Positions 10,380-49,518 are shown, numbered from the stretch's first letter. The stretch is 64,000 bases of DNA from Christensenellaceae bacterium (GCA_948677005.1 CAPPAP010000003.1:89532-153531); one strand, 5' to 3'. A program made the numbers and translations. The notes: generated by a model from the letters alone, not told the origin.

Positions 10380-10392
10380 TTCAGTTCCCCCC

Positions 10393-13008: not shown

Positions 13009-13022
13009 AACATCCTCTTTTA

Positions 13023-18027: not shown

Positions 18028-18037
18028 AATTTACCTT

Positions 18038-22164: not shown

Positions 22165-24031
22165 AGCAGTATACCCCCCAATCCGCCAGCAACAGAACGG
22201 CTATCGCTATAAAAAAGAACAGCAGCTCATCGTAAAACCCGTCGGAATATTCAAATTCCCTTTCCCCGCTCAAAAACAGCGAGCCCCCTCCCTCGGAACG
22301 GCTCTCCTCCTCGGGCACGCACGCAAACGAGCACAGCACGGTATCCTCCGCGCCGTAAAGCTTAACGGTTATAGTATAGGTGCCCGTTTCTGTCAGCTGT
22401 ACGCTGCAAATATCGTTGCCCATGGTATCCAAAGTAGTGCTCTTGCCGGAAGGGCTCTGCACCACAATGCTCTCGCAGTTGGGCACAACGTTCACGTTCA
22501 TAACGTCCCCGCAGCGGTACGCAGTGTCGTCTATAACCGCGGGGAAAAGATAATTCATAAGATTTCTTACAAGTATAAGAAAATCGTCCGTCAGTCCTAA
22601 GCTCGAATCGCCTATACGGAACGCGAAAACCACCTGTCTGTCGCTGTTTTCGTTAAGCCCCGCAGAAATCAGCGCGTCGCCGTTCTGGGTCATAAGCGTA
22701 TAAAACCCGCGCGGCACGCCGTACTTCGCATATTTTCTAACGGCAATATCCCTGCCGGAAACGTCCTGCATAAGCAGCTTTTCCTGTGCGGAGCCGCCCT
22801 TGTTGTACTGCGGCACAAAGTAGCTTGCGGGCCCTTCGGTATCCCTCGGCTCCTCATAGTCCCTGAATGTCACGCCGGAGCCCTTTCCGCTTCCGTCAAC
22901 CGCGTCGATAAGCCACACCGCCGCATTTTTGGGCAGCGTCGCGGGCGCAAATCCGTTGAAAACGTACAGCCCGTAGCCCTTAACCGCCTCGGTATCGTAA
23001 TCCCTTGTGCTCATCATTTCAACGGACGCCTTGCCCGCGCCGGAAATTGCGTTCTTTATATAAATTCTGTCCTGCAAATCGCTTACGATAAGCACCCTTC
23101 TCGACTGGGTTTTCGCCTCGTCGTACAAAACCACGGTATTGTCCTCGCCAAGCGCGTCCGCGTCCGCAATTTTAAGCTGTAAGCTCGCATACCGCGCAAG
23201 CTCCGCGTCTATTTCAAACTCCGTCGGCTCGCCCTGCCTTGCGTTCACCTTTGCCTCAGCCGCCTTAACGGGCTCGCCGCCCAGCTCAGCGGTATAATAC
23301 AGCTCCACCGTCAAGTCCGCGTCGCCGCTGTAAGAAATAACCTTACCCGTGCCCGCCACGCCGTTAACGGTGCGCCTGTACCCGTATTCGGCAAAAGCGT
23401 AGTTGCTTTCCCCCGCAGATACGTCTATAAGCTGCATATTGCCTACCTCGTACGGCTTGTCGGATACAAGATAAATGACCGCCGAGCGGTTGTTATCGAA
23501 GTATTCCTGCGCAATTCCCATCGCGGAAGAGCATTCCGCCACGCTCCAGCCCGCGCTCAGCGCGTCCACGTTCGCCTTAGCCTGCTCCTTGTCGGTCACG
23601 CCCTCGAACGCCACGCCCGCGGTATCCCTTACAAATACAAGCGAGTACGAGCTTCCGCTTAAAGACCCGTCTATAATTTCGTTAATCCGCTGCTGCGCCC
23701 TTTCAAAGCGTGTAGACCCGTCCTGCTGCATATTCATGCTTGCCGAGCCGTCAAGGATAAAATAAATATCGTTTGCCGAAGCGGGCATGGTAAACACGGG
23801 GTGCGCAATAAGCAGCGACACCGCCGCAACCGCCAAAATCTGCAATATAAGCGTAACTATACCCGTCAGCTTTGATACGGGCTTTCTTTTTTTAAGGAAT
23901 TTCTCACTCAGCTCCCACAAATAAGTGGAGGCTATTGTCTGTTCGGTGTATTTGGACTTGATTATGTAAATTAAAATGAGTACGGGTATACCCAAAAGTC
24001 CCAGTAAGCCGAGAGGAAAATAAAAACTCAC
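22142..24031 (-). CDS. BatA-like membrane protein with a vWA domain
   Basis: Aerotolerance-regulator-type N-terminal double-TM MSFYFPLGLLGLLGIPVLILIYIIKSK. vWA start IYFILDGSASMN. A C-terminal TM is present. It overlaps the neighbouring genes. Confidence 0.8.
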   Translation of the reverse strand: MSFYFPLGLLGLLGIPVLILIYIIKSKYTEQTIASTYLWELSEKFLKKRKPVSKLTGIVTLILQILAVAAVSLLIAHPVFTMPASANDIYFILDGSASMNMQQDGSTRFERAQQRINEIIDGSLSGSSYSLVFVRDTAGVAFEGVTDKEQAKANVDALSAGWSVAECSSAMGIAQEYFDNNRSAVIYLVSDKPYEVGNMQLIDVSAGESNYAFAEYGYRRTVNGVAGTGKVISYSGDADLTVELYYTAELGGEPVKAAEAKVNARQGEPTEFEIDAELARYASLQLKIADADALGEDNTVVLYDEAKTQSRRVLIVSDLQDRIYIKNAISGAGKASVEMMSTRDYDTEAVKGYGLYVFNGFAPATLPKNAAVWLIDAVDGSGKGSGVTFRDYEEPRDTEGPASYFVPQYNKGGSAQEKLLMQDVSGRDIAVRKYAKYGVPRGFYTLMTQNGDALISAGLNENSDRQVVFAFRIGDSSLGLTDDFLILVRNLMNYLFPAVIDDTAYRCGDVMNVNVVPNCESIVVQSPSGKSTTLDTMGNDICSVQLTETGTYTITVKLYGAEDTVLCSFACVPEEESRSEGGGSLFLSGEREFEYSDGFYDELLFFFIAIAVLLLADWGVYCYEQYQLR

Positions 24032-24912
24032 TTCATCACCCCCAGCTGCGTCAGCTGTTCAAAGAAAAACTCGTCCACGGGCTTGTCGTCACTAACAAGC
24101 GCGTATTCCGCGCCCCTCGCGTTGCAGTAATTCCGCAATCTGTCCTGAACGTACTTAACCGCCTCGCGATACGCCTTTATAATGTCCCTGTTAATGTTCT
24201 TGCGATAGCTCTTTTCGGGGCTTTCACTGTCGTAAAAAATGTTTTTGCCGCGCACCTTAGGGTTTATTTCCTCTGCGGAAAGCACCTGCACGCACATAAG
24301 GTCGCGCTTTTTGTCGGCAAGATAGTCTATCGCGCTTTCGTAATCGTTATCTGTCAAAAAATCGGAAATTATCACCGACATTCCGTCGCCGTAGCCCACG
24401 CGGGTCGGCAGTATTCCCTCGGAAATAAAGCACCCGCCGCCGAATTCTATGTCGTTCAGCTTGGTAATTTCCGCAAAATACCTCTCTCTGCCGGAAATGC
24501 AGGAAATAACCTCGTTCACCTCGCTGTCGCGGATAGTGTATACCGAAACTCTGTCCAGCTCGGTTACGGACAGGTACGCAAGCGTCGCGGCAATCTGCAA
24601 CGCCGTTTCCGCCTTTTTTCCGTCGCCGTAGGCCATTGATTGGCTTATGTCGATATAAATTTTGGTATGAAGCTGTCTTTCGTCCAGATAAAGCTTTAAA
24701 TAAAGCGTCTCGAAGCGGGCGTAAGCGTTCCAGTCAATTTTGGTTATGTCGTCGCCGGGGATATAATTTCTGTAATCGGCAAATTCGCAGGACGACCCGA
24801 ACGTTCTGCTCTTATGATTTCCGCCGAAAAGACCGGCTATATTGTTTTTGAGTACCGTTTGCAGCATTTCCACGCGCTGCAAAAATACCTCGTTGATTGC
24901 AAGCTTGCCCAT
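24028..24912 (-). CDS. DUF58-family protein (MoxR partner)
   Basis: Motif FADYRNYIPGDDITKIDWNAYAR is typical of DUF58. Located immediately downstream of MoxR. Confidence 0.85.
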   Translation of the reverse strand: MGKLAINEVFLQRVEMLQTVLKNNIAGLFGGNHKSRTFGSSCEFADYRNYIPGDDITKIDWNAYARFETLYLKLYLDERQLHTKIYIDISQSMAYGDGKKAETALQIAATLAYLSVTELDRVSVYTIRDSEVNEVISCISGRERYFAEITKLNDIEFGGGCFISEGILPTRVGYGDGMSVIISDFLTDNDYESAIDYLADKKRDLMCVQVLSAEEINPKVRGKNIFYDSESPEKSYRKNINRDIIKAYREAVKYVQDRLRNYCNARGAEYALVSDDKPVDEFFFEQLTQLGVMK

Positions 24913-24937
24913 TAATCTGCCCTTTTAAATTTCAAAA

Positions 24938-26074
24938 TCAGTTCTTTTTTCCGAATTTCTTCTTCTTTTTAACGTCGCCGCTTTCCGCCGCAACGCCGTC
25001 CGCAACCGCGCTCTCCGCGTCCACAGTATCCGTCACAACCGCCGCGGGCTTTTCCGCGTCCGCGTCCAGCTTGCCCGTGCCCTTTTCCTTTGCGTTTTCC
25101 GCAATAAGCCTTGCAATAACGTCGTCCACGGTCAGCCTTTCGTTTATAGCCGTGTAATTTATCTTCATTCTGTGTCTTAAAACGGGATAGGCAAGCGCGT
25201 CTATATCCCCGTATGCAACGTTATACCTTCCGTCAATCAGCGCGCGGACCTTCGCCGCCGTAATCAGCGCCTGACCCGCGCGCGGCGAGCAGCCGTATTT
25301 AACGTACTTTTTCGCCGTCTCCCCGCTGTCGCCAAGCTCGGGGTGAGTGCGCGCCACAAGCCTCATTGCATAATAAAGCACGTCGGGCGCCACGGGCACG
25401 GTCTTTGCCAGCTCGCGCATTTCAAGAATGGTCGCTCCGTCCACAACCGAGTCCGCCGTCTCCTCCATGGTAATCTGCGTCATGCTTACAATGTCCGCAA
25501 GCTCCTTGACGGAGGGGAAGCCCACAAGCAGCTTAAACATAAAACGGTCCATCTGCGCCTCGGGCAACGGATAGGTACCGTCCTGCTCTATGGGGTTCTG
25601 CGTAGCAAGCACAAAAAACGGCTCGGCAATGGAATAGGTCTTGTTTGCAACGGTCACTCTGTGCTCCTGCATAACCTCCAGCATCGCCGACTGTGTTTTG
25701 GGCGTCGCGCGGTTAATTTCGTCCGCAAGCACAAGGTTCGCAAAAATAGGCCCCTTCTGAAAGACCGTATTCATTCTGCCGTCCGCGTCCTTTTCTATAA
25801 TGTTCGTGCCCGTCACGTCGGAGGGCATAAGGTCGGGAGTAAACTGAATACGCGAAAACGGCAGCTTTAACGTCTTGCCCAATGTGCGCACAAGCCTTGT
25901 CTTGCCAACGCCGGGCACGCCCTCCAAAAGCACGTTGCCGCCCGCAATAATAGCGATTATCACGTTATTGACAATGTCGTCCTGACCAACTAAGTCTTTT
26001 TTGATTTCTTCCTTGATTTTTGCAACCGAGCGGCTGAAATTTTCCGCCTGCGCCTTGTTATCCATATTTCGCAA
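24938..26074 (-). CDS. MoxR-family AAA+ ATPase with a low-complexity Ala/Asp/Lys-rich C-terminal tail
   Basis: Walker A GVPGVGKT, Walker B LADEINRA and the MoxR signature ATQNPIEQDGTYPLPEAQMDRF. Confidence 0.9.
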   Translation of the reverse strand: MRNMDNKAQAENFSRSVAKIKEEIKKDLVGQDDIVNNVIIAIIAGGNVLLEGVPGVGKTRLVRTLGKTLKLPFSRIQFTPDLMPSDVTGTNIIEKDADGRMNTVFQKGPIFANLVLADEINRATPKTQSAMLEVMQEHRVTVANKTYSIAEPFFVLATQNPIEQDGTYPLPEAQMDRFMFKLLVGFPSVKELADIVSMTQITMEETADSVVDGATILEMRELAKTVPVAPDVLYYAMRLVARTHPELGDSGETAKKYVKYGCSPRAGQALITAAKVRALIDGRYNVAYGDIDALAYPVLRHRMKINYTAINERLTVDDVIARLIAENAKEKGTGKLDADAEKPAAVVTDTVDAESAVADGVAAESGDVKKKKKFGKKN

Positions 26075-26082
26075 CCTCTTTC

Positions 26083-27171
26083 TTATTCTTTATTACTTAA
26101 ATCGGCAAAGTAGGTAACAATTATGTACTCCCACTCTTCTCTCGATATAGTTCCTTCTTCGAATGCGGCCTGCACGCGCTGATAGTACTCCTCGCGTATC
26201 TCGCCTACCTTGACGTATCCCTTGTCGGGGTCGTAAAACGGAACGTCGTTCACGTCCAGCTCCCAGCCGGAATCCCCGCCCGGCTCATCGGGGTTGTCGG
26301 GGTCCTCCTCTCCGCCGGAGGGGTCGCTGTCGTCGCCGTCCCCTTCACCGTCGGGCTTTTGCAAAGAAAATATCTCGTAAAGCTTGTTAATAACGTACGC
26401 CTCTTCTTCGGAGTTAAGCGTTTTCTGTTCCTCGCTTATGTCCCTGCCGTTCGCGTCCTTCACCACGTTTCTTATGTTGGAAACGGTGTTCTGCACAAAG
26501 GTAAAAAGACCGCTCTGCGACACGCCGTCGGCAAGCACTCCGCGCAAGCCCTCCAATTCCAGCAGCATACCGGTTTTTGTAACCGTATCCGCCTTTTTTG
26601 AAGCTCTTACGTAATTAATCAGCTCGTCAAGCGCCGCCCACTCCCAGTCGGTTACGGGGCGCTTCGGCTCCTCGGGCGGCTCGTCGGTGTTATTCGCCGC
26701 ATACACGGGCGGCACGAATTTCGCCGCAATCGGCGCCGCAATCACGCCCGTCAGGGCAACAACCCCGCACAAAACGGTCGCCGCAACGTTTTTAAACGGC
26801 AAAGCCTTAACCGAAAGCTTTCCAAGCTCCGCGCTCGCGTTTCCGCGCTGCAAATCCAGCATAGCCCCGCCGTGCCCGCCGAACATATACGCCGTCTGCA
26901 CTCTTTCCTCAAGCTTCAGCTCGCTATCCAGCCTCTTCGCGATTTTTTTGTCGTCCGTACGCAGAATAACAAAGGCTATTCCCCCGCCGACGGCAAACCC
27001 GCCCAAGGCAATAAGTATATAAAACAGCCAAAGCAGCTTTATGCCGAAAAGCTTACACGGCACAAGCACTGCGTTCACGGCTATAAATGCCGCCGCAAGC
27101 CCGCAGACAATGCACTTTATAAGTATTTCCAGCCATACCCTTCTTTTGAATTTTTTAAAATTTTCGTCCAT
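26083..27171 (-). CDS. membrane protein with an acidic Asp/Glu/Pro-rich C-terminal region, unknown function
   Basis: Start chosen at MDENFKKF. Three predicted TM segments, then DGEGDGDDSDPSGGEEDPDNPDEPGGD. Immediately upstream of moxR. Confidence 0.7.
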   Translation of the reverse strand: MDENFKKFKRRVWLEILIKCIVCGLAAAFIAVNAVLVPCKLFGIKLLWLFYILIALGGFAVGGGIAFVILRTDDKKIAKRLDSELKLEERVQTAYMFGGHGGAMLDLQRGNASAELGKLSVKALPFKNVAATVLCGVVALTGVIAAPIAAKFVPPVYAANNTDEPPEEPKRPVTDWEWAALDELINYVRASKKADTVTKTGMLLELEGLRGVLADGVSQSGLFTFVQNTVSNIRNVVKDANGRDISEEQKTLNSEEEAYVINKLYEIFSLQKPDGEGDGDDSDPSGGEEDPDNPDEPGGDSGWELDVNDVPFYDPDKGYVKVGEIREEYYQRVQAAFEEGTISREEWEYIIVTYFADLSNKE

Positions 27172-27271
27172 TTTATGCCGTTCCGTCAATTTACTTAAAA
27201 CATACGCACAGCCATTCCGCATTTCCGCGGAATAGCCTGCGCCTCGATGTCTTTTTATTTTTGCTTATCGC

Positions 27272-30200: not shown

Positions 30201-32095
30201 GCCGTGCCGCCGCCGTATATAACTCTTACCCCGCAAACCGTGTCGTTATCGTCAAGTATGGGATAAATAGTCAGCGGGTTGCCGTACATAAGCATATTTT
30301 TAGCGGCGTTAAAGCTCGACCCGCCGGAATTAAGCACGTATTTGGTCGTATCGTTAACAAGTCCGTTACCGTTCGGATAAATATACAAGATATTCACACC
30401 GCCCACAGCCGCGTCCGCAGGCTTATACGTTCCGCTCATTTCTTCAAGCGTAACGGGTCTTTGAGGCACAACCTTCATATAGCTCACGCCCGCAATCTCA
30501 AAGGTGTTCGGCGCGGTAAGCTTACCCGTCAATTCAATGTTGTTGTAGGTAAAGAAAATCGCATTGCTTTTGCCGCCTATGTATGTAAACGCACAATCAA
30601 CGCCGTTCCAGTTTATAATTCTGTTTGCGGAATTGAGATTAAGCGATTTAACGCCGTTGGTATATTCGCCGTCCTCCCAGCCTGCGGGCAACGGCTCGTC
30701 AATGCTTACCTCAACGGTAATATTTATTTTTGCGGTATCGCTGACGCCATCGCCGCGGCAAAGCGTCACAACTATTATCTGCCCCGCAGTCATATCGAAG
30801 TATTTTTCTTCCGCGTCACAGCCCGCACCGAAGTAAACCCCTTCGCCGTCCAAATCGGTGGTAAAACGGCACTTTGCGGAAGCGCCTATACCAAGCGAAA
30901 GCTTATATCTTCCGGCAGTCGCCGCCTTAAATGCATATTTCAGTTCCTGCTCATTGCCGAACGCCTCGCCGCTCGCCGCGCCAATCTCAAGCTTTGTATA
31001 TGCGTATACCCACTTTGCATAAAGCGTCGTCGCTTTGGTAATCGTTTCCGAAAACTCGAACCACTGCGTAAGCTCCGCGTCCGTATACCAGCCGCCGAAG
31101 TAAAAACCGTTCGCTTCGGGCTCCGTGGGCGCCTTTGCGCGCGTGCCTACTCTCACGGTCTGCGTATCGGGCGCAGTGCCGTGTCCGCCCATATCGAAGC
31201 TTACCTCCACCGTCCATTTTGCATAAACGGTCACGTGCCCCGTAACGGGCTTGTCAAAATCGAAGGCATATGTACAGCTGCTGTTTGAATACCAGCCCCC
31301 GAAGGTATATCCGCTCTCTGCGGGCGGCTCGGGCTCGACTGCCTTCTCTCCCTCTTCTATTTTCTGCCTTTCGGGCGCTACGCCTATTCCCTGAGTGTCA
31401 AAGGTGACAATCCGCCTTTCGTCCTTCTCCCACTTCGCGTAAAGCGTTATATTGCTTGTAACCGGCGTATTAAAGTCAAACGGCTCCGTGCATTCCTCGT
31501 CGGTATGCCAGCCCCTGAAAAACCACCCGTCGATTTCGGGGTCCTCGGGCTTGGTCGCCGTGCCGCCCACCTCGAGCTTCTGGCTCTCGGGCGTCTTGCC
31601 GTGCCCCTTCAAATTAAAGGTAACAACGGGTCTGTTGTCCTTCTCCCACTTCGCATACACGGTCACCGCCGCCGATACGGTTGCGTCAAAATCGAAGGGC
31701 ACGGTGCATTCCGTATCCTTAAACCAGCCGCCGAACAGATATTCCCCGCTCTCGTCTGTCAAATCGGACGGCTTAACCGCCTTGCCTCCGCTGTAAACAA
31801 TCTGCGCTTCGGGAGCGGTCCCGTGTCCCTTCACGTCAAAGGTCACCGCATAATTTTCTCTTCCGCACACGTCGCACTTGCCGTCGGCGCCCTCCGCACT
31901 TGTGGCGTTGTTCAAAACGTCAATGTGCGCGCCCTCGTCCTTCTTGTCGCCGCACTCGCATTCCGACCGATGCATTGCTGCGTCCGATTGCCAAGTGTAG
32001 GTATGCTGATGTTTCTTTGCGCAACCGGCAGCCGCAACAACAGTTGTTGCCGATACCGCCGTAAGCAAGAAAATGAGCAATGACTTCCTTTTCAT
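27272..32095 (-). CDS. giant (1607 aa) surface lipoprotein: His/Cys-rich N-terminal module, four Flg_new repeats and a long beta-rich region with three PPC-like modules
   Basis: Lipobox AAGC, then AKKHQHTYTWQSDAAMHRSECEC...CDVC. Four repeats have the form V.F...G.G..P..Q.....A..P......F.GW......C...FDF...V....T.YAKWE. Three later modules start with G...NP[YL][EK] and contain TAPAD. Confidence 0.85.
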   Translation of the reverse strand: MKRKSLLIFLLTAVSATTVVAAAGCAKKHQHTYTWQSDAAMHRSECECGDKKDEGAHIDVLNNATSAEGADGKCDVCGRENYAVTFDVKGHGTAPEAQIVYSGGKAVKPSDLTDESGEYLFGGWFKDTECTVPFDFDATVSAAVTVYAKWEKDNRPVVTFNLKGHGKTPESQKLEVGGTATKPEDPEIDGWFFRGWHTDEECTEPFDFNTPVTSNITLYAKWEKDERRIVTFDTQGIGVAPERQKIEEGEKAVEPEPPAESGYTFGGWYSNSSCTYAFDFDKPVTGHVTVYAKWTVEVSFDMGGHGTAPDTQTVRVGTRAKAPTEPEANGFYFGGWYTDAELTQWFEFSETITKATTLYAKWVYAYTKLEIGAASGEAFGNEQELKYAFKAATAGRYKLSLGIGASAKCRFTTDLDGEGVYFGAGCDAEEKYFDMTAGQIIVVTLCRGDGVSDTAKINITVEVSIDEPLPAGWEDGEYTNGVKSLNLNSANRIINWNGVDCAFTYIGGKSNAIFFTYNNIELTGKLTAPNTFEIAGVSYMKVVPQRPVTLEEMSGTYKPADAAVGGVNILYIYPNGNGLVNDTTKYVLNSGGSSFNAAKNMLMYGNPLTIYPILDDNDTVCGVRVIYGGGTAAEYTRTGEAPDEVPETLPLDLYVEYLGEIYSYKRTGTNFQYFNGSSATMTAYNKAENKYSLKIYVRGQGYKYFDLTLVGEGDNLSIEVRTNVVVDVIKVNGKDQEVIEYRLVDTLTKYVPEIHDFPADGAEQTIAAADFKKGYYYYRVPKTSGYIFSSNQKGLQIYYNLTESNLENTANLVVFGETVQLTAGTIIGVAYPSSKPESVGFKVERVIVYGTEENPYEVGTGGYIFNAVRNTKYYAEFTAPADGVYGFKITNITISEPTGNADIYTLISTVDGKNVGFVPTALKYELGEKTGLTLAEYIEGLPYKVELRAGDKIIITFNPQRNVSAVRLEIRDVNAPEPAELTLVNGAGSITESGSYKYTKAFTEDVIGLTFEGGADFTLKCMGEAYTGKKLTLTATQLSVGFDIELAEGGTVDYKFEYAEGTQNNPLEVGIGVTDVDYLDDKPVWIKVTAPADNDLLFTLDTVYASGLTFGFCYEYKGVKYGYTMSGTSCVPLSLTAIRLAAGESTVIKVYCSRDYSDYTSNPIIPVRVSIDNTPDFTENAETLNFVEGKTNKGVRPFDVSTVVSGSKNLHIADTDGNRLTIKAGKLFYIWLETGMIAAKRISSTEYRLDWNAAKNFYFGIVSDEEQTISFHYEYRAGAANNPLKIVTVNGEYTSDLSSSDTYFVFEKAGTYMVTAGGMVMLNDSTLELNTVFTANAGDIIICSSLRDTTKFTVKLTVAEELIGKYNYTDGEAKLLDLTAFAVDFGDGAYTLVAIDGDVYTYEKATGVTVELTLGETMLFGDKALTRCVVFTEAQAGSYTGTATVDDAVHKLQLSLKTDGTVTFVAGNQSFDAFAEATEGGFVFTCNNETITLTFDASGNAVLDSAVFGEGIVLEQFFVYRGVITTENADKLEMTIELNGSLTKGKFSYNNLSALGDSYGCEITVTENNGTYSYADDNNWIKGTFTIEGNVLNLQAEGYGSGPLNKV

Positions 32096-41181: not shown

Positions 41182-44100
41182 ATGACAAAATCAGCAAAAA
41201 TCAAAAGGCTTTCTGCGGCAGTCGCCGCTATGGCCTTGGGCGCGGTATTCGCCGTATCCGCAGGCGGGTGCGCACATACGCACACGTTCTCAAACGAATG
41301 GCAAACCGACCAAACCCATCACTGGCACGCGGCAACCTGCACGCACAGCGGCGAGGTTTCCGGCAAGGCTGTCCACGACTTCGGCAATACGGACGTCTGC
41401 GGCGTATGCCGTTACGACAGAAGCACGGGCACAACCCCGCCAAACCCCACCGACCCCACGCCCCCGCCCGATACAACCGACCCCACCGACCCGTCCGACC
41501 CCGCAGCCAAAAAATACACGGTCGCATTCGATTCCAACGGCGGCACGGCAATCGACGCACAGTCTGTCGAGGACGGCAAAACGGCGTTCGCCCCCGTCGC
41601 CCCCAAACGGGCGGGCTATCAGTTTGCGGGCTGGTACCTCAACAATGCCGTTTTCAGCTTCGATACCCCCGTCACCAAAAATATAACGCTTGTCGCCAAA
41701 TGGGAAAAGCTGGACGCAAAAATCAAGGACTACGGCGGCTATGACGAAAGCCTTTACATAGAATGGTCCGACGGCGACCCCTCGCAGTCGCAGGTTCAGT
41801 ACAAGCCGCACGGCGCAAGCGCATGGACCTCGGCAGACGCCGAGCTTATCCGTCCCAAATCGGGTGAAAGCAACGTCGCCCGCGCAGACGTTCTCGGACT
41901 TACCCAAGGCAATTACGATATCAAAGTCACCGCCTCTGACAAAAGCGAGCTTTCAATCGAAAATATCGCCGTCACCGCCTACGACCGTTCGGGCTATGCG
42001 CACTTCAACCATACCGAGGGCGTCGGCGCGTACTACGATGACGGTACCGTAAAGGACAACACTCTCGTTATCTACGTCACGGACGAGAATAAAAACACCG
42101 TCGACTACGGCTATGTAAACGGTCAAAGGGTAGATTTAACCCCCTACCTCTATCAGGGCAACACGGGCATCGGCTGGATACTCAACAACCGCGCATACAG
42201 CGCCCAGATAAACAACTTCGGCATAACCAAGCTTTGCAACACCTACGGCGCTGTCGCCGTACGCTTTATCGGCACGGTCAACGCCGAAAAGGGCGCCTCC
42301 AAGGAAGACGCCAAATACAGCTTAATCGACGGACTTACCGCCCACAACTCGACTGAAAACGGCGGTACCGTAGGCGACAACGGCAGAATGGCGCGCATAA
42401 TAAGCGCCAAAAACCTCACGTTAGAGGGCGTCGGCGAGGACGCAACCGTCTACGGCTGGGGCTTCCACCTCGTCAACAACGATATAAATTACAAAACCAC
42501 GGGCGCGGGCTCCAATTTCGAGGTAAGAAATCTCACCTTCGAACACTATCCCGAGGACGCAATCGGTATGGAGGGCAACGTGCAGGAGCCGTTAAGCCAA
42601 TACACCAAAGCCCCCGTACAGCGCTGTTGGGTTCACAATAACACCTTCCTCCCCGGCTATTGCGGCGACCCCGCCGAAAGCGACAAGGCGGAAGGCGACG
42701 GCAGCTGCGACTTCAAGCGCGGCGAGTATTTCACCCTCTCCTACAACTATTTTACAGACTGCCACAAAACCAACCTCATAGGCGCGTCCACAAGCAACCT
42801 GCAATACAACGTCACAATGCACCACAATTGGTGGAACAACTGCGGCTCGCGCGTGCCCTATGTCCGCAACTCCAACGTCCATTTTTACAATAATTACGTC
42901 ACCACCGCGGACGACGGCTCCAACGACTACGTACACGACGCAGACGGCACCTCGTTCATCTTCAGCGAAAGCAATTATTACTTCAACTGCAAGCAGATTA
43001 CAAGGGGCGGAATTGTCAAATCGTGGGCAAACACCCTCTACGGCTGTTGGGGCAACAGCGGCACCTTCAAGGCAACCGAAACCCGCAACGAAGCGGTTTC
43101 CAACAGCTGCAAATACCGCGACGGCAAGGATTTATCGCACTTCGAATGCGACCCGACAATGTTCTACTACAACACGCAAACGGGCGAAAGCGACTGCCTG
43201 CTTGACGATTCGATAACCGCAAGGCTAAGGGTCATGCAATTTGCGGGCGTTGCGGGCTGGTACGAAAACAACCCCAAAAAGCAATCCTCCATGCCCTTCA
43301 AGGCAAACCCGATACGGAATATCCCGACCACGGCCGTACCCGTACCCGACAGCGGCGAGCTGGCAATAAAAATGCCGGAGGACAAAAACGGCGCAACGGT
43401 CAGCGGAGTACTCTTCGCCAACCTCACGGGCATACCCGTCAAGGGCGTTTCGGTCAAGGGCAAGGGCCAGATAATCTCCTTCACGCTGGCAGCCGAGGCA
43501 GAGGTATCCTTCAAGGCGGAAGCGGCAAGCCCCGACTACCTTGCAGAGATAATCGACGCAAACGGAGCAGTCCACGCAAGCAAGGTCGGCGCCGCCTCCG
43601 TAGTACTCCCCGCGGGCACGTACAGCATATCCTCGGGCACGGGCACCCGCACGGGCTCCAACGCCAAGGAGGTAACAGTTTCCTCCCTCACGTTCAGGTC
43701 AACGTCCGCGTCCGCGCAAGCCAAGATAGATAATCTTAACGCGGCGATAGACGCCCTTCCCTCAACAATAACGGCGGAAAGCGGCGCGCTTATAAACGCG
43801 GCAAAAACGGCCCTGTCCGCGCTTAACGCAACCGAGCTTGAAAATTACAAAACGCAGTACGCCGACCGCTGGACAAAATACCAAAACGCGCTTACAGCCT
43901 ACTCTCTTGCGCAGATTGCCGACGTCGAGGCAAAAATAGACGCAATAGGCGCCGTCGGCGAAAATTCCTACCCCGCAATTACCGCGGCACGCGCCGCCTA
44001 CGACGCACTCACGCCCGAGCAAAAGCAAAGCGTGCAGAATTATACCAAGCTTACCGCGGCGGAAGCGGCATGGGCGAATATCGCAGTCACCTCTGTAACA

Positions 44101-44856
44101 AACGCAATCTCCGCGCTTACCGACGTTTCAGGCTGGACTGCGGAAAACGGCAAGCAAGCCGTAACCGCACAAATCTCGGCATATCAGTCCGTCAAAAACG
44201 CATACGATGCCTTAACCTCCGCACAGCAAAGCGAGGTTACCAACCGCGACAAGCTTGCAAACGGACTTGAAAAGCTCGCCGCAATTCTTGCAGAAATAGA
44301 AACCGCCGAAAAGGAAGCCGCCGCCCTTGCGGAGTTCGAGGCAACCCTAAACAACGTAACCGACGCAACCGCCTTATCCAAGGCAGAATGCAAGGCAATT
44401 ATCGATTTGTATGCAAAGCTCTCCCCCGCAAAGCAGGCGGAATATGCGGAAAACGCAACCTATAAGGCTGTGCTTGAAAAGTATACCGAATACGCAAGCC
44501 TGTCGGTAGTCGCAATATTCACAAGCGACAACCCCGCCCTTGCAACAGACGCAGGCTTTACGGTCAGCGGCAAATACAACAGCAAGGCAAGCTTTGAATA
44601 CAACGGCACAACCTATAAAGGCCCGTTAAAGCTCGAATCCGCCACAACCGTCAGCTTCACAAACGCAATAGCCAATAAAATAACAATCAAAATCGGCACT
44701 GCGGGCGGACAAATCAAGCTTGACGGAACAGCCTACAAGGACGAAGATAACGATGGACTTATCGTAATCGACAGCCTTGCCGCGGGCGACCATCAAATAA
44801 CCAAGGCCAGCGGCGACCCCAACCTATGCTATATAGAGTTAGAACCCGCCGTCTGA
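41182..44856 (+). CDS. surface lipoprotein: His/Cys-rich N-terminal module, Flg_new repeat, PL1 pectate lyase catalytic domain, beta-sandwich modules and helical repeats
   Basis: Lipobox AGGC, then AHTHTFSNEWQTDQTHHWHAATC...CGVC. Flg_new is YTVAFDSNGG...GWYLNN...LVAKWE. PL1 motifs are DGSCDFKRG..FTLSYNYF.DCHKTNLIG....NVTMHHNWW..C.SRVPYVRNSNVHFYNNY. Four helical repeats have the form A..AY.ALT..Q...V.N...L. Confidence 0.85.
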   Translation: MTKSAKIKRLSAAVAAMALGAVFAVSAGGCAHTHTFSNEWQTDQTHHWHAATCTHSGEVSGKAVHDFGNTDVCGVCRYDRSTGTTPPNPTDPTPPPDTTDPTDPSDPAAKKYTVAFDSNGGTAIDAQSVEDGKTAFAPVAPKRAGYQFAGWYLNNAVFSFDTPVTKNITLVAKWEKLDAKIKDYGGYDESLYIEWSDGDPSQSQVQYKPHGASAWTSADAELIRPKSGESNVARADVLGLTQGNYDIKVTASDKSELSIENIAVTAYDRSGYAHFNHTEGVGAYYDDGTVKDNTLVIYVTDENKNTVDYGYVNGQRVDLTPYLYQGNTGIGWILNNRAYSAQINNFGITKLCNTYGAVAVRFIGTVNAEKGASKEDAKYSLIDGLTAHNSTENGGTVGDNGRMARIISAKNLTLEGVGEDATVYGWGFHLVNNDINYKTTGAGSNFEVRNLTFEHYPEDAIGMEGNVQEPLSQYTKAPVQRCWVHNNTFLPGYCGDPAESDKAEGDGSCDFKRGEYFTLSYNYFTDCHKTNLIGASTSNLQYNVTMHHNWWNNCGSRVPYVRNSNVHFYNNYVTTADDGSNDYVHDADGTSFIFSESNYYFNCKQITRGGIVKSWANTLYGCWGNSGTFKATETRNEAVSNSCKYRDGKDLSHFECDPTMFYYNTQTGESDCLLDDSITARLRVMQFAGVAGWYENNPKKQSSMPFKANPIRNIPTTAVPVPDSGELAIKMPEDKNGATVSGVLFANLTGIPVKGVSVKGKGQIISFTLAAEAEVSFKAEAASPDYLAEIIDANGAVHASKVGAASVVLPAGTYSISSGTGTRTGSNAKEVTVSSLTFRSTSASAQAKIDNLNAAIDALPSTITAESGALINAAKTALSALNATELENYKTQYADRWTKYQNALTAYSLAQIADVEAKIDAIGAVGENSYPAITAARAAYDALTPEQKQSVQNYTKLTAAEAAWANIAVTSVTNAISALTDVSGWTAENGKQAVTAQISAYQSVKNAYDALTSAQQSEVTNRDKLANGLEKLAAILAEIETAEKEAAALAEFEATLNNVTDATALSKAECKAIIDLYAKLSPAKQAEYAENATYKAVLEKYTEYASLSVVAIFTSDNPALATDAGFTVSGKYNSKASFEYNGTTYKGPLKLESATTVSFTNAIANKITIKIGTAGGQIKLDGTAYKDEDNDGLIVIDSLAAGDHQITKASGDPNLCYIELEPAV

Positions 44857-44884
44857 CACCTCTTACCACAGCAACATAGCAAAA

Positions 44885-44914
44885 CCCCGCCGTGCGCTTA
44901 TGCGCACGGCGGGG
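44885..44914. terminator. bidirectional terminator between convergent lipoprotein genes
   Basis: CCCCGCCGTGCGC-ttat-GCGCACGGCGGGG, flanked by AAAA and TTAGTTTTTT. Confidence 0.85.
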
Positions 44915-44947
44915 TTAGTTTTTTACTTCACACCGATTTAAATTATA

Positions 44948-47497
44948 TTATACGGTTATGTCCCATACGTCCGCATAAGTAACCTTACCGTTCACCTTCC
45001 CGAAAATCACCTCAAGCTTGTTGTAATTTGCCGCCTCCGCCTCTGTCAGCACTCTGCCGACCGTCAAAGCCGTCACCGCTCCGTCGCCCGTGTTGTTATA
45101 TTCGGTAAACTGCGCGGTTTTCGGGTCGCCGTTGCCCATGCTCACATACCTTCCGCCCGCGTTTGTCGATGCGTTTTTGGAGATATGTCCGCCCAGACGG
45201 CAATTCATTACCATAACGGCCGCGTCCGCGCCCCAGGCTCTGCCAATCGCCGTCTTTCCGACGGGCACGCCCGCCTCTGCCGAAAAATCACAGTCGTCGA
45301 ATATAGCGCCGTAGGTCACCTTATCGGTTGCCGAGCCCTTGTTCAGCCCCTTAAACGCCGTCACATACCCGCCGTTGCTTCCGTTGGCAACAACCTTAAT
45401 CTCGCATTGATAGAAGTAAGTCGTATTATTCGTTCCGAAAATGAAGTCAACCGAGCCGGAAATAAGGCAGTTTTTAAAAATCTGTCGGCCCGTAAACAGC
45501 TCCAAGGTATCCTGAAAGCCCAGCAGTGCGCTGTCCTCTATAACAACCTTGTCTGCCTGAATCAGCATCGCAAGCGCGCGCTTGTCGTTGCTCGCCGCGC
45601 CGTTGTACGAGGCCAAGGTGTTGTATTTGTTGGAAACGGTCACCCCGCGCATTTCAAAGCCGACAGCCGTATCCCTCACGTTCAGCGTCGCTGTCGAATC
45701 GGTCGTATGCACAAATCCGCCCTCGTCCGCCACGCCGTAAAGCGAGTCGTACTCTATTTTCGTCCTGTCTTGTCCCGCGCCTATTAACGTCACGTTAGGC
45801 ACGGTAATTTCAAGCTTTTCCCAATAGGTTCCCTCGGCAATATAAACCTTCTTCTCCGCGCCGTCCTTTATGCCCGCGCCGTTCAAAAAGTCCACAGCCT
45901 GCTGAATTGTCTTAAAGCGGTACGCTCCCGCGGAATTTTTAGTACCGATTGTCGCGGTAGAAAATTCGGGGTTAACCGCAACAATCACCTCGTCTGCGGT
46001 CGCAAGCTCCGCACCCTTTTCCGCAACGTAAATATTAAAGCCCTTCGCCTTCGTCAGCCCGTTAGCGGTGTATGCAACCTTTACAGCCTTCTTGCCGGTT
46101 GTCGCAGTGCTGTTTCCGGTAATTTCCGCCTGTGCTTCGTCAAGGCTGAAAACCTTCGTCTTATCGCCAAGCTTCCCCGTCGCCTTTATCGAAAGTCCGT
46201 CCGCGGAAAAGGCTCCGTCCTTGAAATAGAACTGCCTTACCGCGTGGTTTGCGTAAACGCCGTTGCCCGCCGCCGAGTTTTTGTTTTCCTTAACAACCCT
46301 GTTAAAGCCGACGGTCAAGTCCTCGAAGGAGTAAACGTTAACGTTGTATTTTGTCGTGAAGGTCGTTTCCGCACTGCCGAGATTCCCGTCGACGGTGTAG
46401 GTTACGCCTATCTCATATGTTCCGGGCGTCATCGCGTCGTACTTCGAGGTGTCAAGCACAAGCTTTTCCGCCTTCACGGGCGAAATTCTCCCCGTCTCCG
46501 CATGCGTCGCGGTTACGGCAATGCCCGTGCAGTCAAGCTGCTGTCCCACAATATAATCCACCGTGCCCGTGTTCGCCATATTAATCGCGTTTATAGGCGT
46601 GTTGGAAACGGTATTCGTAAATTTCGCGTAAAATATATCAGAGGTTCCGCTCTTACGCTTAATCGTGTACGTGCCCGCAGTCGCAAGCTGCAACGTCACC
46701 CTTTCTATGTTACTGCTGCCGCCCATAGCCTGATAATTTATATCCTGAGTGCTCCCGTCCGGCTTTGTAAGCACAACGGTCTGCATGGCGGGCGCCTCGG
46801 CAGAGCCAACCCCTCCGGAGCCGTTCTGCACGTAAAACATCAGCGTACCCGCGGCGGAAATTTTCACCGTAAGCGCCGACGAGCTGTCACCCAGCTTAAC
46901 CGAGTTAACAGTCACATAAGCGGGGTCAACGCAAACGCCGTTCTCGTAAAGCCCCGTTTTAATTCTTCCGCGAACCTCCGTGCCCGCCGCTATCGAAAAC
47001 ACGCCGTCCGTCCAGCCGTCGGCATATTTGGTTGTGGAAAGCTTAGCCGCGTCAAATTCGTAAGCGGTTTCTATGTTGCCCTCCTCCAACGCCTCGCCGT
47101 TGCCTGTGTTCGCAATAACCTTCGGCGCGGGAACAGCCTCCGCAACGCCCTGCTCGTCGTCGTATACCGCAACCGAGGGGTTGTCGTTCACGTCGTCCGC
47201 GTCGGGCTTGACGTAATCCTTATGCGTCAGCTCGGGCTTCGGGTCGGGCTTTTCCTCACCCTTTACGTAATGGCAAACGTCGCACTCGCTGTCGCCGCCC
47301 CATACGTGCTCTCCGTATGCGCTTTTCTCGTCTGTGTGTTCGCAGGTCGCCGCGTGCCAGTGGTGCGTCGCACTCTTCTCCCACTGTTCGTCAAAGGTGT
47401 GCTTGTGCGCGCACCCCGCAGTGCCCAAACCCGCCGCTACAGAAACGGCGCTCAGCGTAATCGCGGCAACCGCCTTCATAAGCCTTGAATTTTTCAT
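44948..47497 (-). CDS. surface lipoprotein: His/Cys-rich N-terminal module, beta-sandwich and Ig-like modules, and a C-terminal CE8 pectin methylesterase
   Basis: Start chosen at MKNSRLMKAV after GGGAGGAAG. Lipobox TAGC, then AHKHTFDEQWEKSATHHWHAATC...CDVC. CE8 motifs are TIQQAVD, GFQDTLE, GSVDFIFG and IGRAWG. Confidence 0.85.
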   Translation of the reverse strand: MKNSRLMKAVAAITLSAVSVAAGLGTAGCAHKHTFDEQWEKSATHHWHAATCEHTDEKSAYGEHVWGGDSECDVCHYVKGEEKPDPKPELTHKDYVKPDADDVNDNPSVAVYDDEQGVAEAVPAPKVIANTGNGEALEEGNIETAYEFDAAKLSTTKYADGWTDGVFSIAAGTEVRGRIKTGLYENGVCVDPAYVTVNSVKLGDSSSALTVKISAAGTLMFYVQNGSGGVGSAEAPAMQTVVLTKPDGSTQDINYQAMGGSSNIERVTLQLATAGTYTIKRKSGTSDIFYAKFTNTVSNTPINAINMANTGTVDYIVGQQLDCTGIAVTATHAETGRISPVKAEKLVLDTSKYDAMTPGTYEIGVTYTVDGNLGSAETTFTTKYNVNVYSFEDLTVGFNRVVKENKNSAAGNGVYANHAVRQFYFKDGAFSADGLSIKATGKLGDKTKVFSLDEAQAEITGNSTATTGKKAVKVAYTANGLTKAKGFNIYVAEKGAELATADEVIVAVNPEFSTATIGTKNSAGAYRFKTIQQAVDFLNGAGIKDGAEKKVYIAEGTYWEKLEITVPNVTLIGAGQDRTKIEYDSLYGVADEGGFVHTTDSTATLNVRDTAVGFEMRGVTVSNKYNTLASYNGAASNDKRALAMLIQADKVVIEDSALLGFQDTLELFTGRQIFKNCLISGSVDFIFGTNNTTYFYQCEIKVVANGSNGGYVTAFKGLNKGSATDKVTYGAIFDDCDFSAEAGVPVGKTAIGRAWGADAAVMVMNCRLGGHISKNASTNAGGRYVSMGNGDPKTAQFTEYNNTGDGAVTALTVGRVLTEAEAANYNKLEVIFGKVNGKVTYADVWDITV

Positions 47498-47526
47498 TCT
47501 TCCTCCCAAAAACTAATTTAAATATC

Positions 47527-47553
47527 TGCCGCGGACGCTTTGCGCCCGCGGCA
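47527..47553 (-). terminator. hairpin between the two tandem lipoprotein genes (probably a partial terminator)
   Basis: TGCCGCGG...CCGCGGCA stem. I found no convincing promoter between it and the downstream start at 47497. Confidence 0.5.
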
Positions 47554-47591
47554 AGAAAAGTATTCAAGCTTTATTCACATTAATTTTTTAA

Positions 47592-49385
47592 TTAAACCTG
47601 CGCAGGAACAATTACGGCACGGTAAAGCGCCATTTCAGAGTTGGCGCCTCTCGAAATGCGGTAAGTCCCCGCCGCGCCAAACTCAATTACAACCTTATAA
47701 ACGCTTCCATCGGCAACAGCCCCGCCGCTCGTTGTAGTTGCGCCTGCTACGCCACCGGTTACAACAGCCCATTTCAAGGCTTGATTTCCGCTGACATAGA
47801 ATGTAACGGTACCCGCCTCAGCAAGCACAATATCAACATAACCGGAGGAATTCAATTTAACACCGCTGGCAAAGTTTTTACCATCGACAACACCCGCAGT
47901 TGACTTATATCCGCTTCCGCTTACAGCCCAACCGTTTGTGCTGTATCCGTCCAAGCTCTCAATTTTTCCGTCAAAATCAATGGTATACGATGTTTTAAGC
48001 GCGTCCGCCTCAACCTTAGTGGTTTCAAAGGTTACAGTCAGCTTTGTTGTTGCGTCTTCGTAGGTATAAATATAATTACCTTCCTGTGCGTTTTCCGCAG
48101 TACGAGTATAGCTTCTGTCACCAAGCAAAGGCAATACGATATCCTGCACGTGTCCGCAACTTCTTGTGCATGTCGCGGTAAACTTGCCCGTTGCTTCAGC
48201 CGTAGGCAGACTTACCTGCACGGGAGTAACATCCGTGTAATCATGACCAAGCGCATTAATTACAATATCCGCCTTCTTATAAACTAACGTAGTACCGTCC
48301 TCTTTATAGAACCTGCCGTAATTTGTCTTGTAATGCTTGGGATTTCCCGCATTTACACAATCAGCGACTTTTGCAGCTACTTCCGTGCTTGTTTCTTCAA
48401 AATTCTTATAAACTACCGCAATATAGAACGCTCCCGCCTTACCGGTAGAACTGTAAGCATAATAATCACCGGCCGCCGATACGTCAAACATAGCAACGCC
48501 TACAAAATTCCCCTCGGGCACGCCCAAGTTCTGCTCTGTCCCGACAGCGTTTGCCGAGCTGTCTATCATTGACAGTTTCGCCTCTGCCCCGCCGGAAGTG
48601 GAATGTGCGTAAATTATAATTTTAGCCGCCGCCTTGGTTGTAATTTTCAAGCCCTTATTTATTGCGCCGTCGTTAACGCTTCCCGCATCAAGATTTATAC
48701 GGTTCCTCGTTACAACTTCCGTGCCGTTATAAGTAATAACCTTTCCTCCGCTGGACGCAACCTTCAAGGTGCCTACCGAAGCAATGCCGGAGCCCGCGAT
48801 AAGTTCACCGGGGTCTCTCGCGTCATTAATAGCAACGTCGCCCAAATCAACAGTCACATTATCTTGCTCCACAGGCGGCGTAACCGTGCCGTCCTTGGTT
48901 ACTGTAACCGTGCAGGTATCCGTCTTGTTTCCGTCCGCGGTCTTAACGGTAATCACCGCCGTGCCCTCTGCAACCGCCGTAACCTTGCCGTTCTCAACCG
49001 TGGCAATGCTCGGCTTGTCGCTCGACCAGCTAACCGCCTTGTTCGTCGCGTCCGCAGGCGCAACCGTCGCGGTCAGCGTCTCGTTCGCGCCCTCTTTAAG
49101 GGTCAGCGTCTTTTTATTCAGCGTAACGCCCGTAACCGCAACCACGGACGAGCCCGAAGAGGTCCAATGACAAACCTTGCACTCGTTGCCCTCCATATCG
49201 TGCGGCGTTGTGTCGGAATGCTCGTCACAGCCCGTGCAAAGCTGATAATGCCCCGTTGCACCGTCCGCCTTGTAATCGCCCCAGCTGTGCTTGTGTCCGC
49301 AAGCCGTTAAAGAAACGCATCCCGCCGCCGCAACCGCGCCTACGGTAAGCGTGGCAATAGCCCTTAAAATTTTCTTGTTTTTCAT
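47592..49385 (-). CDS. surface lipoprotein: His/Cys-rich N-terminal module, Big_2 domain and beta-sandwich modules; function unknown
   Basis: Start chosen at MKNKKIL after GGAGG. Lipobox LTAC, then GHKHSWGDYKADGATGHYQLCTGC...CKVC. Big_2 is VTLNKKTLTLKEG...AVSWSSDKPSIATVENGKVTAVAEGTAVITV. Confidence 0.85.
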   Translation of the reverse strand: MKNKKILRAIATLTVGAVAAAGCVSLTACGHKHSWGDYKADGATGHYQLCTGCDEHSDTTPHDMEGNECKVCHWTSSGSSVVAVTGVTLNKKTLTLKEGANETLTATVAPADATNKAVSWSSDKPSIATVENGKVTAVAEGTAVITVKTADGNKTDTCTVTVTKDGTVTPPVEQDNVTVDLGDVAINDARDPGELIAGSGIASVGTLKVASSGGKVITYNGTEVVTRNRINLDAGSVNDGAINKGLKITTKAAAKIIIYAHSTSGGAEAKLSMIDSSANAVGTEQNLGVPEGNFVGVAMFDVSAAGDYYAYSSTGKAGAFYIAVVYKNFEETSTEVAAKVADCVNAGNPKHYKTNYGRFYKEDGTTLVYKKADIVINALGHDYTDVTPVQVSLPTAEATGKFTATCTRSCGHVQDIVLPLLGDRSYTRTAENAQEGNYIYTYEDATTKLTVTFETTKVEADALKTSYTIDFDGKIESLDGYSTNGWAVSGSGYKSTAGVVDGKNFASGVKLNSSGYVDIVLAEAGTVTFYVSGNQALKWAVVTGGVAGATTTSGGAVADGSVYKVVIEFGAAGTYRISRGANSEMALYRAVIVPAQV

Positions 49386-49518
49386 TTTTCCTCCAAAAAA
49401 ACATTTTTTACAGAGCAATTAAGAGTTTTTAAGAGAAATGCGTTATTTAGCATTTCTCTGCCGCGGATATAAAAAATATCCGCGCGGCTTAACCGCTACC
49501 ATATTTGTTACCTCATTA

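Follow-up and report, generated by a model that had tools for sequence, protein, structure and literature searches.

A His/Cys-rich repeat related to the predicted zinc-binding domains of an IgA protease adjoins the lipid anchor of five surface lipoproteins in a Christensenellaceae bacterium

Five large surface lipoproteins (P1 to P5) encoded in a 64,000-nucleotide stretch of DNA from a Christensenellaceae bacterium (GCA_948677005.1, CAPPAP010000003.1:89532-153531; hereafter the window, meaning the whole stretch) carry, immediately after the lipid-anchored cysteine (lipo-Cys), a His/Cys-rich module of 44-53 amino acids (aa). Profile searches identify this module as one unit of a large tandem-repeat family that is not peculiar to this genome, and the module almost certainly belongs to the ZBD family of an immunoglobulin A (IgA) protease. 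It is likely to bind zinc (Zn), and we favor, with somewhat more confidence than doubt, the view that its main function is that of a spacer, a Zn-stabilized stalk next to the cell anchor. The repeat is not categorically new, having been seen in 2025 in one IgA protease (two copies, by prediction); the window copies are short-form, lipobox-adjacent members of that repeat family. The five open reading frames (ORFs) and their modules translate as an earlier note on this DNA had written them:

P1: 13138-14706, minus strand, 522 aa; module at 14476-14631.
P2: 27272-32095, minus strand, 1607 aa; module at 31865-32023.
P3: 41182-44856, plus strand, 1224 aa; module at 41269-41409.
P4: 44948-47497, minus strand, 849 aa; module at 47273-47413.
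P5: 47592-49385, minus strand, 597 aa; module at 49170-49301.

A hidden Markov model (HMM) built from the five modules matches, in the six-frame translation of the window, these five segments only. Since that test is circular, we trained a control HMM on 66 repeat units that come from unrelated proteins elsewhere and not from the window; it, too, recovers exactly P1 to P5 (P3, E = 5.1e-15; P4, 3.2e-13; P1, 2.6e-10; P2, 7.6e-6; P5, 0.017), the next-best window segment having an E value of 0.38. Because a profile trained outside the window picks exactly these five, the N-termini are, on sequence grounds, homologous and not alike by chance or composition. With unrelated cargoes attached, the module is the real and portable unit that the earlier note had taken it for. 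The note was also right that four other lipoproteins of the window are without it: a solute-binding protein (SBP; 5584-6858), a GH13 protein (10393-13008), and two proteins with no Pfam match (15742-18027 and 18038-19474).

The family is large. When 1.84 billion cluster representatives (50%-identity clusters) were searched exhaustively by HMMER with the five-sequence profile, 4,348 were matched at E <= 1e-3, 1,318 at <= 1e-10, and 169 at <= 1e-30, and the best 150 relatives contain 3-22 matched stretches per protein. The units are contiguous and 47-50 aa long, with 0-9 residues between them, in arrays of up to 23 copies; one example, HEHTFATEWSNNATAHWHAATCEHTDEMADYAEHSYTDGVCVCGYE, occurs seven times in a 395-aa lipoprotein. 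The consensus of the ~48-aa unit is H-x-H-T-[FY]-x3-W-x2-D-x3-H-W-H-x3-C-x-H-x9-H-x7-C-x-x-C-G-Y. Two word-indexed homologue searches with short profiles yielded 4 and 1 matches, all of them fragments. No Pfam-A or NCBIfam model covers the module in full-length P1 to P5, neither database returns a match for the isolated modules at E <= 10, and neither has a model on the repeat in 10 multi-repeat relatives (7-12 copies); for one multi-repeat relative the summed score of Pfam Zn_ribbon_RPB9 lies just over the cut-off, with no individual domain. Each window protein is borne by 57-126 public contigs, and among 200 cluster members a single one is named ("Ig domain-containing protein"). In the literature, the only descriptions of the repeat that we found are those in the IgA protease papers.

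The connection to the IgA protease comes from a sequence search of all PDB chains. Here the five-sequence profile found one relevant protein, the IgA protease of Thomasclavelia ramosa (9qa6_A, E = 0.011), and a 71-sequence profile matched this chain and no other (E = 1.5e-9). The matched residues, 1073-1130 and 906-941 of the chain, are equivalent to H1102-Y1159 and 935-970 of UniProt Q9AES2 (our own conversion from the construct in the paper, chain n = UniProt n+29) and fall in the domains named ZBD2 and ZBD1 (PMC12237041) or CTD4 and CTD2 (PMC12415215). The statement of the earlier note that the module has no named domain therefore holds for Pfam and NCBIfam models only, given the match to ZBD1/ZBD2. 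Membership in an already characterized domain, which the note had named as grounds for giving up its proposal, applies in part: the IgA protease domain is itself predicted and not experimentally characterized.

Conservation was assessed over 1,056 aligned copies from 150 mutually distant top proteins. Over all copies, H18 is present in 100%, H5 in 95%, C24 in 94%, and H36 in 84%; counted over the copies that are aligned at the position, C44 and C47 stand at 100% and H3 at 97%. The conserved aromatics are W19 (92%), W11 (87%), and [YF]7 (85%), and D14 is found in 75%. The conserved His/Cys pattern resembling metal ligands, noted earlier by eye in five copies, accordingly extends across the family, whose members keep the His/Cys positions at 84-100%, the outcome that the note had made a check on its idea. 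Details of the pattern changed: HxH, part of the pattern from the start, is present in P2 too, and the C-x-[HC] that was thought absent from P1 is there as C-D-D, a minority Cx[DE] form. The lipobox Cys, which had been counted as the first ligand, drops out, since 98% of the copies have a gap in its column; in the alignment it is the anchor, and neither a ligand nor part of the domain.

Next to C24, the second knuckle ligand takes the form CxH (60%), CxC (12%), CxxC (10%), Cx3-4C (7%), CxxH (4%), or Cx[DE] (3.6%), and copies that lack any second ligand at this place make up <3%. The loop length varies together with the knuckle subtype, of which the window holds four: CxH in P3 and P4, CxC in P2, CxxC in P5, and CxD in P1. 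Such an exchange of His, Cys, and Asp at an ever-occupied position is, at the level of sequence, as a metal site predicts. Strain variants of P1 to P5 (15 listed members per 90% cluster) are changed at non-ligand residues only. Every window copy has at least 8 candidate ligands, P1 with Asp at one position, and these His/Cys sets suffice for tetrahedral sites (about two His and two Cys each).

[quoted passage not shown] P5, the most divergent copy, is given the same topology (pLDDT 83.5; strands 6-13, 17-23, and 28-32). In the ZBDs of the IgA protease, too, subdomain II is described as three strands and a knuckle (PMC12237041). Foldseek found no significant fold for the model among 350,542 PDB chains (best E = 4.6, probability <0.1), and its top matches (polo-box, eRF1, and XPA) were discarded at probability <0.1; the lack of a solved structural relative agrees with both IgA protease studies (PMC12237041, PMC12415215).

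In an up-down-up sheet of this kind, H3 and H5 (before strand 1) would share one end with C24 and H26 (after strand 2), and H18 (where strand 2 starts) and H36 (where strand 3 ends) would lie at the other end, beside the CxxC knuckle. A putative site A at the membrane-facing end would hold Zn through H3, H5, C24, and H26 (or C22/C27/D26), and a putative site B at the distal end through H18, H36, C44, and C47. This assignment to two sites is suggested by the strand topology and by a weak co-absence signal that hints at a pairing of H3/H5 with C24 and the second knuckle ligand and in which H5 is missing together with C24 and together with that second ligand at ratios of ~5, values confounded by long-form units and alignment truncation. 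Zn is the most plausible metal, both because the ligand sets are complete Cys/His tetrahedra and because Sec export leaves proteins unfolded, which excludes cofactors assembled in the cytoplasm. The signal peptides of P1 to P5 start with a basic n-region, continue with a hydrophobic core, and close with a lipobox (xxGC / TAC) that ends in Cys, and no twin-arginine motif was found in any of them; Sec-type signals suit a metal bound spontaneously in the extracellular space better than a cytoplasm-assembled cofactor. Rieske, Fe-S, and other redox centers were rejected as candidates: they need CxH...CxxH and twin-arginine translocation (Tat), whereas the module has CxH...H...CxxC behind a Sec/signal peptidase II (SPase II) signal free of twin arginines. 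We judge the guess of a Zn mini-domain near the membrane to have been correct, with Zn binding itself a prediction.

The module begins 1-3 residues past the lipo-Cys in five of the nine lipoproteins of the window. The distance from Cys to HxH is one residue (A, K, or G) in P1, P3, P4, and P5 and three (AKK) in P2, which confirms the membrane-proximal placement reported before. Outside the window, placement was followed in two samples, both biased, one toward top-scoring multi-copy proteins and the other toward copies with the motif HWHAATCE. Of the 150 top relatives, at least 108 carry a lipobox just upstream of where the repeats begin; in 80 genome loci, at least 61 of 92 repeat-bearing ORFs have one just upstream, with a gap from Cys to the first His of 0-3 residues in 37 of the 61 lipoprotein ORFs and of 0-1 in 21. 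A single copy, as in the window, is the commonest state in these loci (48 of the 92 ORFs). Overall, the gap between Cys and repeat spans 0 to >100 residues. In relatives without a lipobox, the arrays end 45-200 residues before a C-terminal PxTG-type (sortase) motif or before a hydrophobic helix with a basic tail; other arrays follow an N-terminal signal-anchor or, by eye, abut SLH-like repeats, and a dockerin beside the repeat is Pfam-confirmed in one relative (P0125). The repeat thus tends to adjoin the end by which the protein is anchored, be it the N- or the C-terminus, and this placement lends new support to the "periscope" idea put forward for the IgA protease. The definition of the unit by its place after the lipobox, as in the earlier note, has to be abandoned in view of the tandem arrays of 3-23 copies, the spacing of 0 to >100 residues from the lipo-Cys, and the other anchors.

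Among the relatives with a signal-anchor, one subgroup (P0027, P0140, and P0146) combines an N-terminal signal-anchor helix with 5-10 repeats. P0027 has a C-terminal Peptidase_S11 D-Ala-D-Ala carboxypeptidase domain (Pfam), and the C-terminal sequences of P0140 and P0146 are similar. In proteins of this type, the stalk would fix how far a cell-wall enzyme stands off the membrane.

The architecture in the window is lipo-Cys, repeat, linker, B-repeat or Ig-like domains, and then the cargo, which is a carbohydrate-active enzyme (CAZyme) where it could be assigned. The parts of the five proteins, with repeat units as found by the control HMM, are:

P3, 41182..41268, plus strand: lipoprotein signal peptide, aa 1-29, ending in ...VSAGG before Cys30 (translation, lipobox detection).
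P3, 41269..41415, plus strand: lipo-Cys30 and one repeat unit (E = 5.1e-15; pLDDT 93) with the key residues H32, H34, W40, H47, W48, C53, H55, H65, C73, C76, and Y78.
P3, 41416..41514, plus strand: Pro/Thr/Asp-rich linker, aa 79-111, with the sequence DRSTGTTPPNPTDPTPPPDTTDPTDPSDPAAKK.
P3, 41515..44856, plus strand: spacer and cargo, by Pfam Flg_new (InlB B-repeat) at aa 112-173 (E = 3.3e-16), PL1 pectate lyase at aa 405-598 (E = 1.3e-15), and CBM77 at aa 1110-1218 (E = 7.3e-22).
P4, 47267..47497, minus strand: signal peptide over aa 1-28, followed by lipo-Cys29 and a single repeat unit that runs to Tyr77.
P4, 44948..47266, minus strand: charged/Pro-rich linker, Big_3 Ig-like domains (Pfam, E = 4.4e-6), and CE8 pectinesterase (Pfam Pectinesterase, E = 6e-30).
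P5, 49164..49385, minus strand: signal peptide, lipo-Cys, and one divergent unit of the CxxC-knuckle subtype (E = 0.017; pLDDT 83.5).
P5, 47592..49163, minus strand: Ser-rich linker, Big_2 Ig-like domain (Pfam, E = 5.2e-15), and cargo with no Pfam match.
P1, 14470..14706, minus strand: signal peptide, lipo-Cys26, and one unit with a Cx[DE] knuckle and a long loop.
P1, 13138..14469, minus strand: short PT linker, Flg_new (Pfam, E = 7.2e-8), Big_2 (Pfam, E = 1.6e-9), and weak SusE/F-like modules (SusF_SusE match at E = 4.7e-4, below the Pfam cut-off).
P2, 31862..32095, minus strand: signal peptide, lipo-Cys25, AKK spacer, and one unit with a CxC knuckle, a subtype that resembles ZBD2 of the IgA protease.
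P2, 27272..31861, minus strand: four Flg_new repeats (Pfam, E = 2.9e-57, 4 stretches), then ~1,200 aa with no Pfam match.

The cargo of P5 also contains, at 48100-48240 on the minus strand (aa ~395-440 of a 608-aa frame), the stretch ALGHDYTDVTPVQVSLPTAEATGKFTATCTRSCGHVQDIV, which resembles the long-form "subdomain III" (H-x-[YW]...PTCTxxG...CxxCG) that is common in P0121-like relatives and in the IgA protease; the five-module HMM gives it an E value of only 150.

These observations can be joined in a model. P1 to P5 are Sec/SPase II lipoproteins whose mature N-terminus is one ~48-aa repeat unit, predicted to form a three-stranded up-and-down beta-sheet and then a CxxC knuckle. Such a unit would have almost no hydrophobic core and would be held together by two tetrahedral Zn sites. 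Because the number of strands is odd, the chain would enter at one end and leave at the other, so that one unit could act as a short rigid pedestal and tandem units as a rod. Christensenellales are strictly anaerobic, and their kind of Bacillota is monoderm. In such a host, for these very reasons, extracellular disulfides are expected to be unreliable, and a lipoprotein must span the wall to reach pectin or starch; zinc may provide the cross-links for which an anoxic, reducing habitat leaves disulfides unsuited. Seated directly on the lipid anchor of a monoderm gut anaerobe, the unit, with its Pro/Thr linker and the B-repeat or Ig-like spacers, would hold the pectin- or starch-active cargo off the membrane and through the wall. 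A non-catalytic repeat between cell anchor and functional domain, as in the IgA protease, is what the window proteins have. From the homology, the conservation, the predicted fold, and the anchor placement, we infer Zn occupancy, the assignment of the sites, and the spacer function.

Several points weigh against this model. A single window unit, which we estimate at roughly 3-4 nm from the 110 A per 129 residues of ZBD1, would extend the protein little beside what the linkers and Ig-like domains after it contribute, and the GH13 lipoprotein of the same window manages without the repeat. The conserved and probably exposed aromatics could mean a binding surface and not a passive spacer. The two sites are suggested by strand topology plus the weak co-absence signal, and both samples behind the anchor proximity are biased in the ways given above. 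Finally, the Zn sites and domain folds of the IgA protease are predictions only (PMC12237041, PMC12415215).

The aromatics lead to the strongest alternative, namely that the repeat is a binding module. F/Y7, W11, and W19 on its surface would bind a wall polymer (peptidoglycan or a secondary wall glycan) and so retain the proteins, or would bind a shared partner or the polysaccharide substrate. We regard this as unlikely, if well worth keeping in mind: the conservation of these residues stands at 85-92% on a sheet that has little core, the repeat always adjoins an envelope anchor, and for domains of the periscope type, the InlB B-repeat among them, binding functions came to light later (PMC12415215). 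However, the aromatics of so small a domain may just pack around the metal sites, and a copy number of 1 to 23 is typical of length-setting spacers. The module has no similarity to any carbohydrate-binding module (CBM), LysM, SLH, or cell-wall-binding family (Pfam, Foldseek), and the IgA protease ZBDs are dispensable for catalysis, with no partner reported.

That the repeat instead handles metal at the surface, capturing, buffering, or sensing Zn or another metal, or serving in redox, strikes us as very improbable. The 8-9 potential ligands per ~48 aa, on the surface, lipid-anchored, and often in many copies, would suit such a role, for which the streptococcal histidine-triad (Pht) lipoproteins and the Zn-dependent self-association of Aap/SasG offer parallels, and regulation by environmental zinc has been raised as possible (PMC12415215). 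Nevertheless, full Cys/His tetrahedral sets typify tight structural sites and not exchangeable ones (PMC12415215), and Sec export excludes Fe-S or other cytoplasm-assembled cofactors. The partners to which the repeat is fused are unrelated enzymes instead of metal transporters, the window has no metal-uptake genes next to it, and Pfam gives no match to Strep_his_triad or G5.

Even less credible is a sorting, retention, or processing signal past Cys+1 that is read by the lipoprotein machinery, comparable to the lipoprotein export signal of Bacteroidota. The close spacing in five of the nine window lipoproteins, and the gap of 0-1 that recurs in 21 of the 61 lipoprotein ORFs, would suit it, but the gap ranges from 0 to >100 residues, tandem repeats lie far from the Cys, and this variable spacing argues against a signal read by position. 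Copies also occur by C-terminal anchors and in proteins without a lipobox, and a folded domain of ~48 aa is far larger than known sorting motifs. A Bacillota host, expected from general knowledge to be monoderm, has no outer-membrane sorting step. An export signal of the Bacteroidota type, with a fixed +2 to +5 motif and a diderm host, was accordingly rejected on the variable spacing and the lipobox-free copies. Sorting, docking, and redox or metal sensing had all been floated in the earlier note, and nothing that we found favors them over a structural-Zn spacer. Lastly, a chance likeness or a His/Cys low-complexity composition, which short segments with a pairwise identity of only 28-50% might invite, is refuted by the control HMM and the thousands of homologues, and the confident AF2 model speaks against it as well.

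The Zn-stabilized stalk may also be given a wider reading, in which the repeat is the main envelope-spanning stalk of lipid- and sortase-anchored surface proteins in strictly anaerobic gut Bacillota and replaces, in a zinc-dependent way, stalks stabilized by disulfides or isopeptides. Site A would be 2-4 residues away from the lipid anchor, which would make entire suites of polysaccharide-degrading enzymes dependent on extracellular zinc for their posture and stability. If this were true, host zinc sequestration (calprotectin) or dietary zinc would directly modulate fiber degradation by Christensenellales and their relatives. We offer this as speculation that will quite probably prove wrong.

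The window is 99.99% identical to two metagenome contigs in ENA, and a metagenome-assembled genome (MAG) labeled as uncultured Christensenella sp. MGBC140398 shares 92-94% identity over ~4.7 kb of a 6.1-kb locus. A scan of one genome per species with 10 consensus-like units and the motif HWHAATCE, a sample biased to the HWHAATCE subtype, gave 297 confirmed stretches. The hosts are Christensenellaceae, Oscillospiraceae, Ruminococcus, Roseburia, Coprococcus, Agathobacter, uncultured Bacilli/Mollicutes-like lineages, and a few Treponema, and the source is gut, faecal, or ruminal wherever the record titles state one. In two loci from Treponema or Treponemataceae MAGs (L061 and L066), the repeat follows a lipobox, e.g., ...VTGCKDPEPAHEH. 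Treponema is diderm and lies outside the Bacillota, and these copies suggest horizontal spread in the gut habitat, with MAG contamination as another possible source. For P5, in a comparison of positions 1400-2827 of the locus in the related Christensenella MAG (L003) with window positions 47583-48863, the flanks are 92-94% identical in nucleotides and the middle of the homologue's cargo is unaligned by blastn; the homologue is also longer, with an open segment of 656 aa versus 608. This suggests rapid divergence of the P5 cargo or a cassette swap, with the N-terminal repeat kept.

Also in the window, the minus-strand region 1292-14706 is a starch/maltodextrin utilization cluster. It encodes a MalK-type ABC ATPase with an unusually long product of 629 aa, two probable permeases and a probable LacI-type regulator (the last three from sequence only), the SBP lipoprotein, a cytoplasmic GH13 protein with Alpha-amylase_N, a secreted 298-aa protein, the GH13 lipoprotein, which bears a single Flg_new repeat, and P1 with its SusE/F-like modules. 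A lone serine recombinase gene (15072-15674, plus strand; Pfam Resolvase, E = 1.6e-25) lies on the opposite strand between P1 and the next lipoprotein gene and may mark a rearrangement or an invertible or mobile segment. The two lipoproteins at 15742-19474 (minus strand) are 761 and 478 aa long, have no Pfam match, and are without the His/Cys repeat; the 478-aa protein has a Pro/Asp/Asn-rich linker straight after the lipobox. Between lipoprotein genes, at 19471-27222 on the minus strand, is a Bat/MoxR-type operon that includes the following genes:

24938-26074, minus strand: MoxR AAA_3 ATPase.
24028-24912, minus strand: probable DUF58 protein (by sequence, without a domain scan).
22142-24031, minus strand: BatA-N and VWA protein.
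19471-22164, minus strand: large VWA membrane protein.

What is new here is the size of the family, its tandem-repeat nature, the ligand-swap subtypes, and the systematic adjacency to anchors, mostly at lipoprotein N-termini. The ~4,300 clusters that carry the repeat are mostly large surface proteins of poorly cultured gut Clostridia and Bacilli; the repeat has no database name and merits the definition of a family. Its recognition would improve the annotation of many "hypothetical" lipoproteins, account for the recurring HxH...CxxC N-termini on CAZyme lipoproteins of Christensenellales, and mark the boundary between anchor or stalk and cargo for expression constructs. It would also provide a compact extracellular Zn(Cys/His) fold, with the Zn predicted, for structural and mechanical study.

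Among known systems, the pneumococcal histidine triad proteins PhtA/B/D/E likewise lie at the surface, have an N-terminus of the lipobox type, and repeat His-rich motifs that bind Zn. They differ in that their motif is HxxHxH without Cys, on another fold, and serves zinc acquisition, whereas here the motif is HxH, Cys is essential, and the repeat is fused to enzymes; membership in that group was rejected on the motif and on the lack of a Pfam Strep_his_triad match. Zinc ribbons, such as the TFIIS C-terminal domain and RPB9, share the small three-stranded sheet with a CxxC knuckle, and ZBD1 subdomain I distantly resembles TFIIS (PMC12237041). Ribbons, however, have two CxxC knuckles and one Zn, while in the present units HxH, H, and CxH take part as well and the number of implied sites is two, and this repeat is extracellular and tandem. 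A classical zinc ribbon was rejected, given that no Pfam model matches the modules at E <= 10 and that no ribbon appears in Foldseek (best E = 4.6).

The periscope-type stalks of Gram-positive surface proteins (G5-E of SasG/Aap, the InlB B-repeat, and Ig-like Big domains) resemble the family in placing variable-number tandem repeats between anchor and functional domain. G5 is also a single-layer beta-sheet with little hydrophobic core, and a rod shape was seen by small-angle X-ray scattering (SAXS) for CTD2 of the IgA protease. The difference lies in the putative intradomain Cys/His metal sites, which stand in place of extended sheet packing; in Aap, by contrast, Zn drives intermolecular dimerization through His/acidic ligands. 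Pfam G5 has no match in the window proteins or in 10 relatives, and none of the stalk repeats matches the module in sequence or fold (Pfam, Foldseek).

The closest known system is the IgA protease. Its ZBDs consist of three-stranded antiparallel sheet subdomains whose interfaces are clasped by putative Zn sites of two His and two Cys (PMC12237041), and ZBD1 measures 110 A per 129 residues. CTD2 alone is folded and, by SAXS, a fully extended rod; CTD2 and CTD4 have no PDBeFold relative, and "an uncharacterized periscope domain fold" projecting the protease off the cell surface has been proposed (PMC12415215). The window units differ in being of a short form, with 6-9 residues from H36 to CxxC versus ~21, "subdomain III" having shrunk to a knuckle. 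They are single, N-terminal, and lipid-anchored, while those of the protease are C-terminal and stand before a sortase motif, and the cargo consists of CAZymes and not of a protease; Zn and fold are predicted in both. Alike are the pattern H-x-H...W...HW-x-x-C...H...CxxC, with HRSECECGDKKDEGAH of P2 closely mirroring HWHECNCGDKKDEAAH, and the predicted three-stranded sheet with Cys/His clasps and no solved structural relative. In both systems the units are non-catalytic and adjoin the cell anchor, ZBD2 standing directly before the SPQTG anchor. In the protease tail (CTD1-4), as in the window proteins, the repeat is combined with B-repeat and Ig-like spacers, the order in the window being the mirror image of that in the protease.

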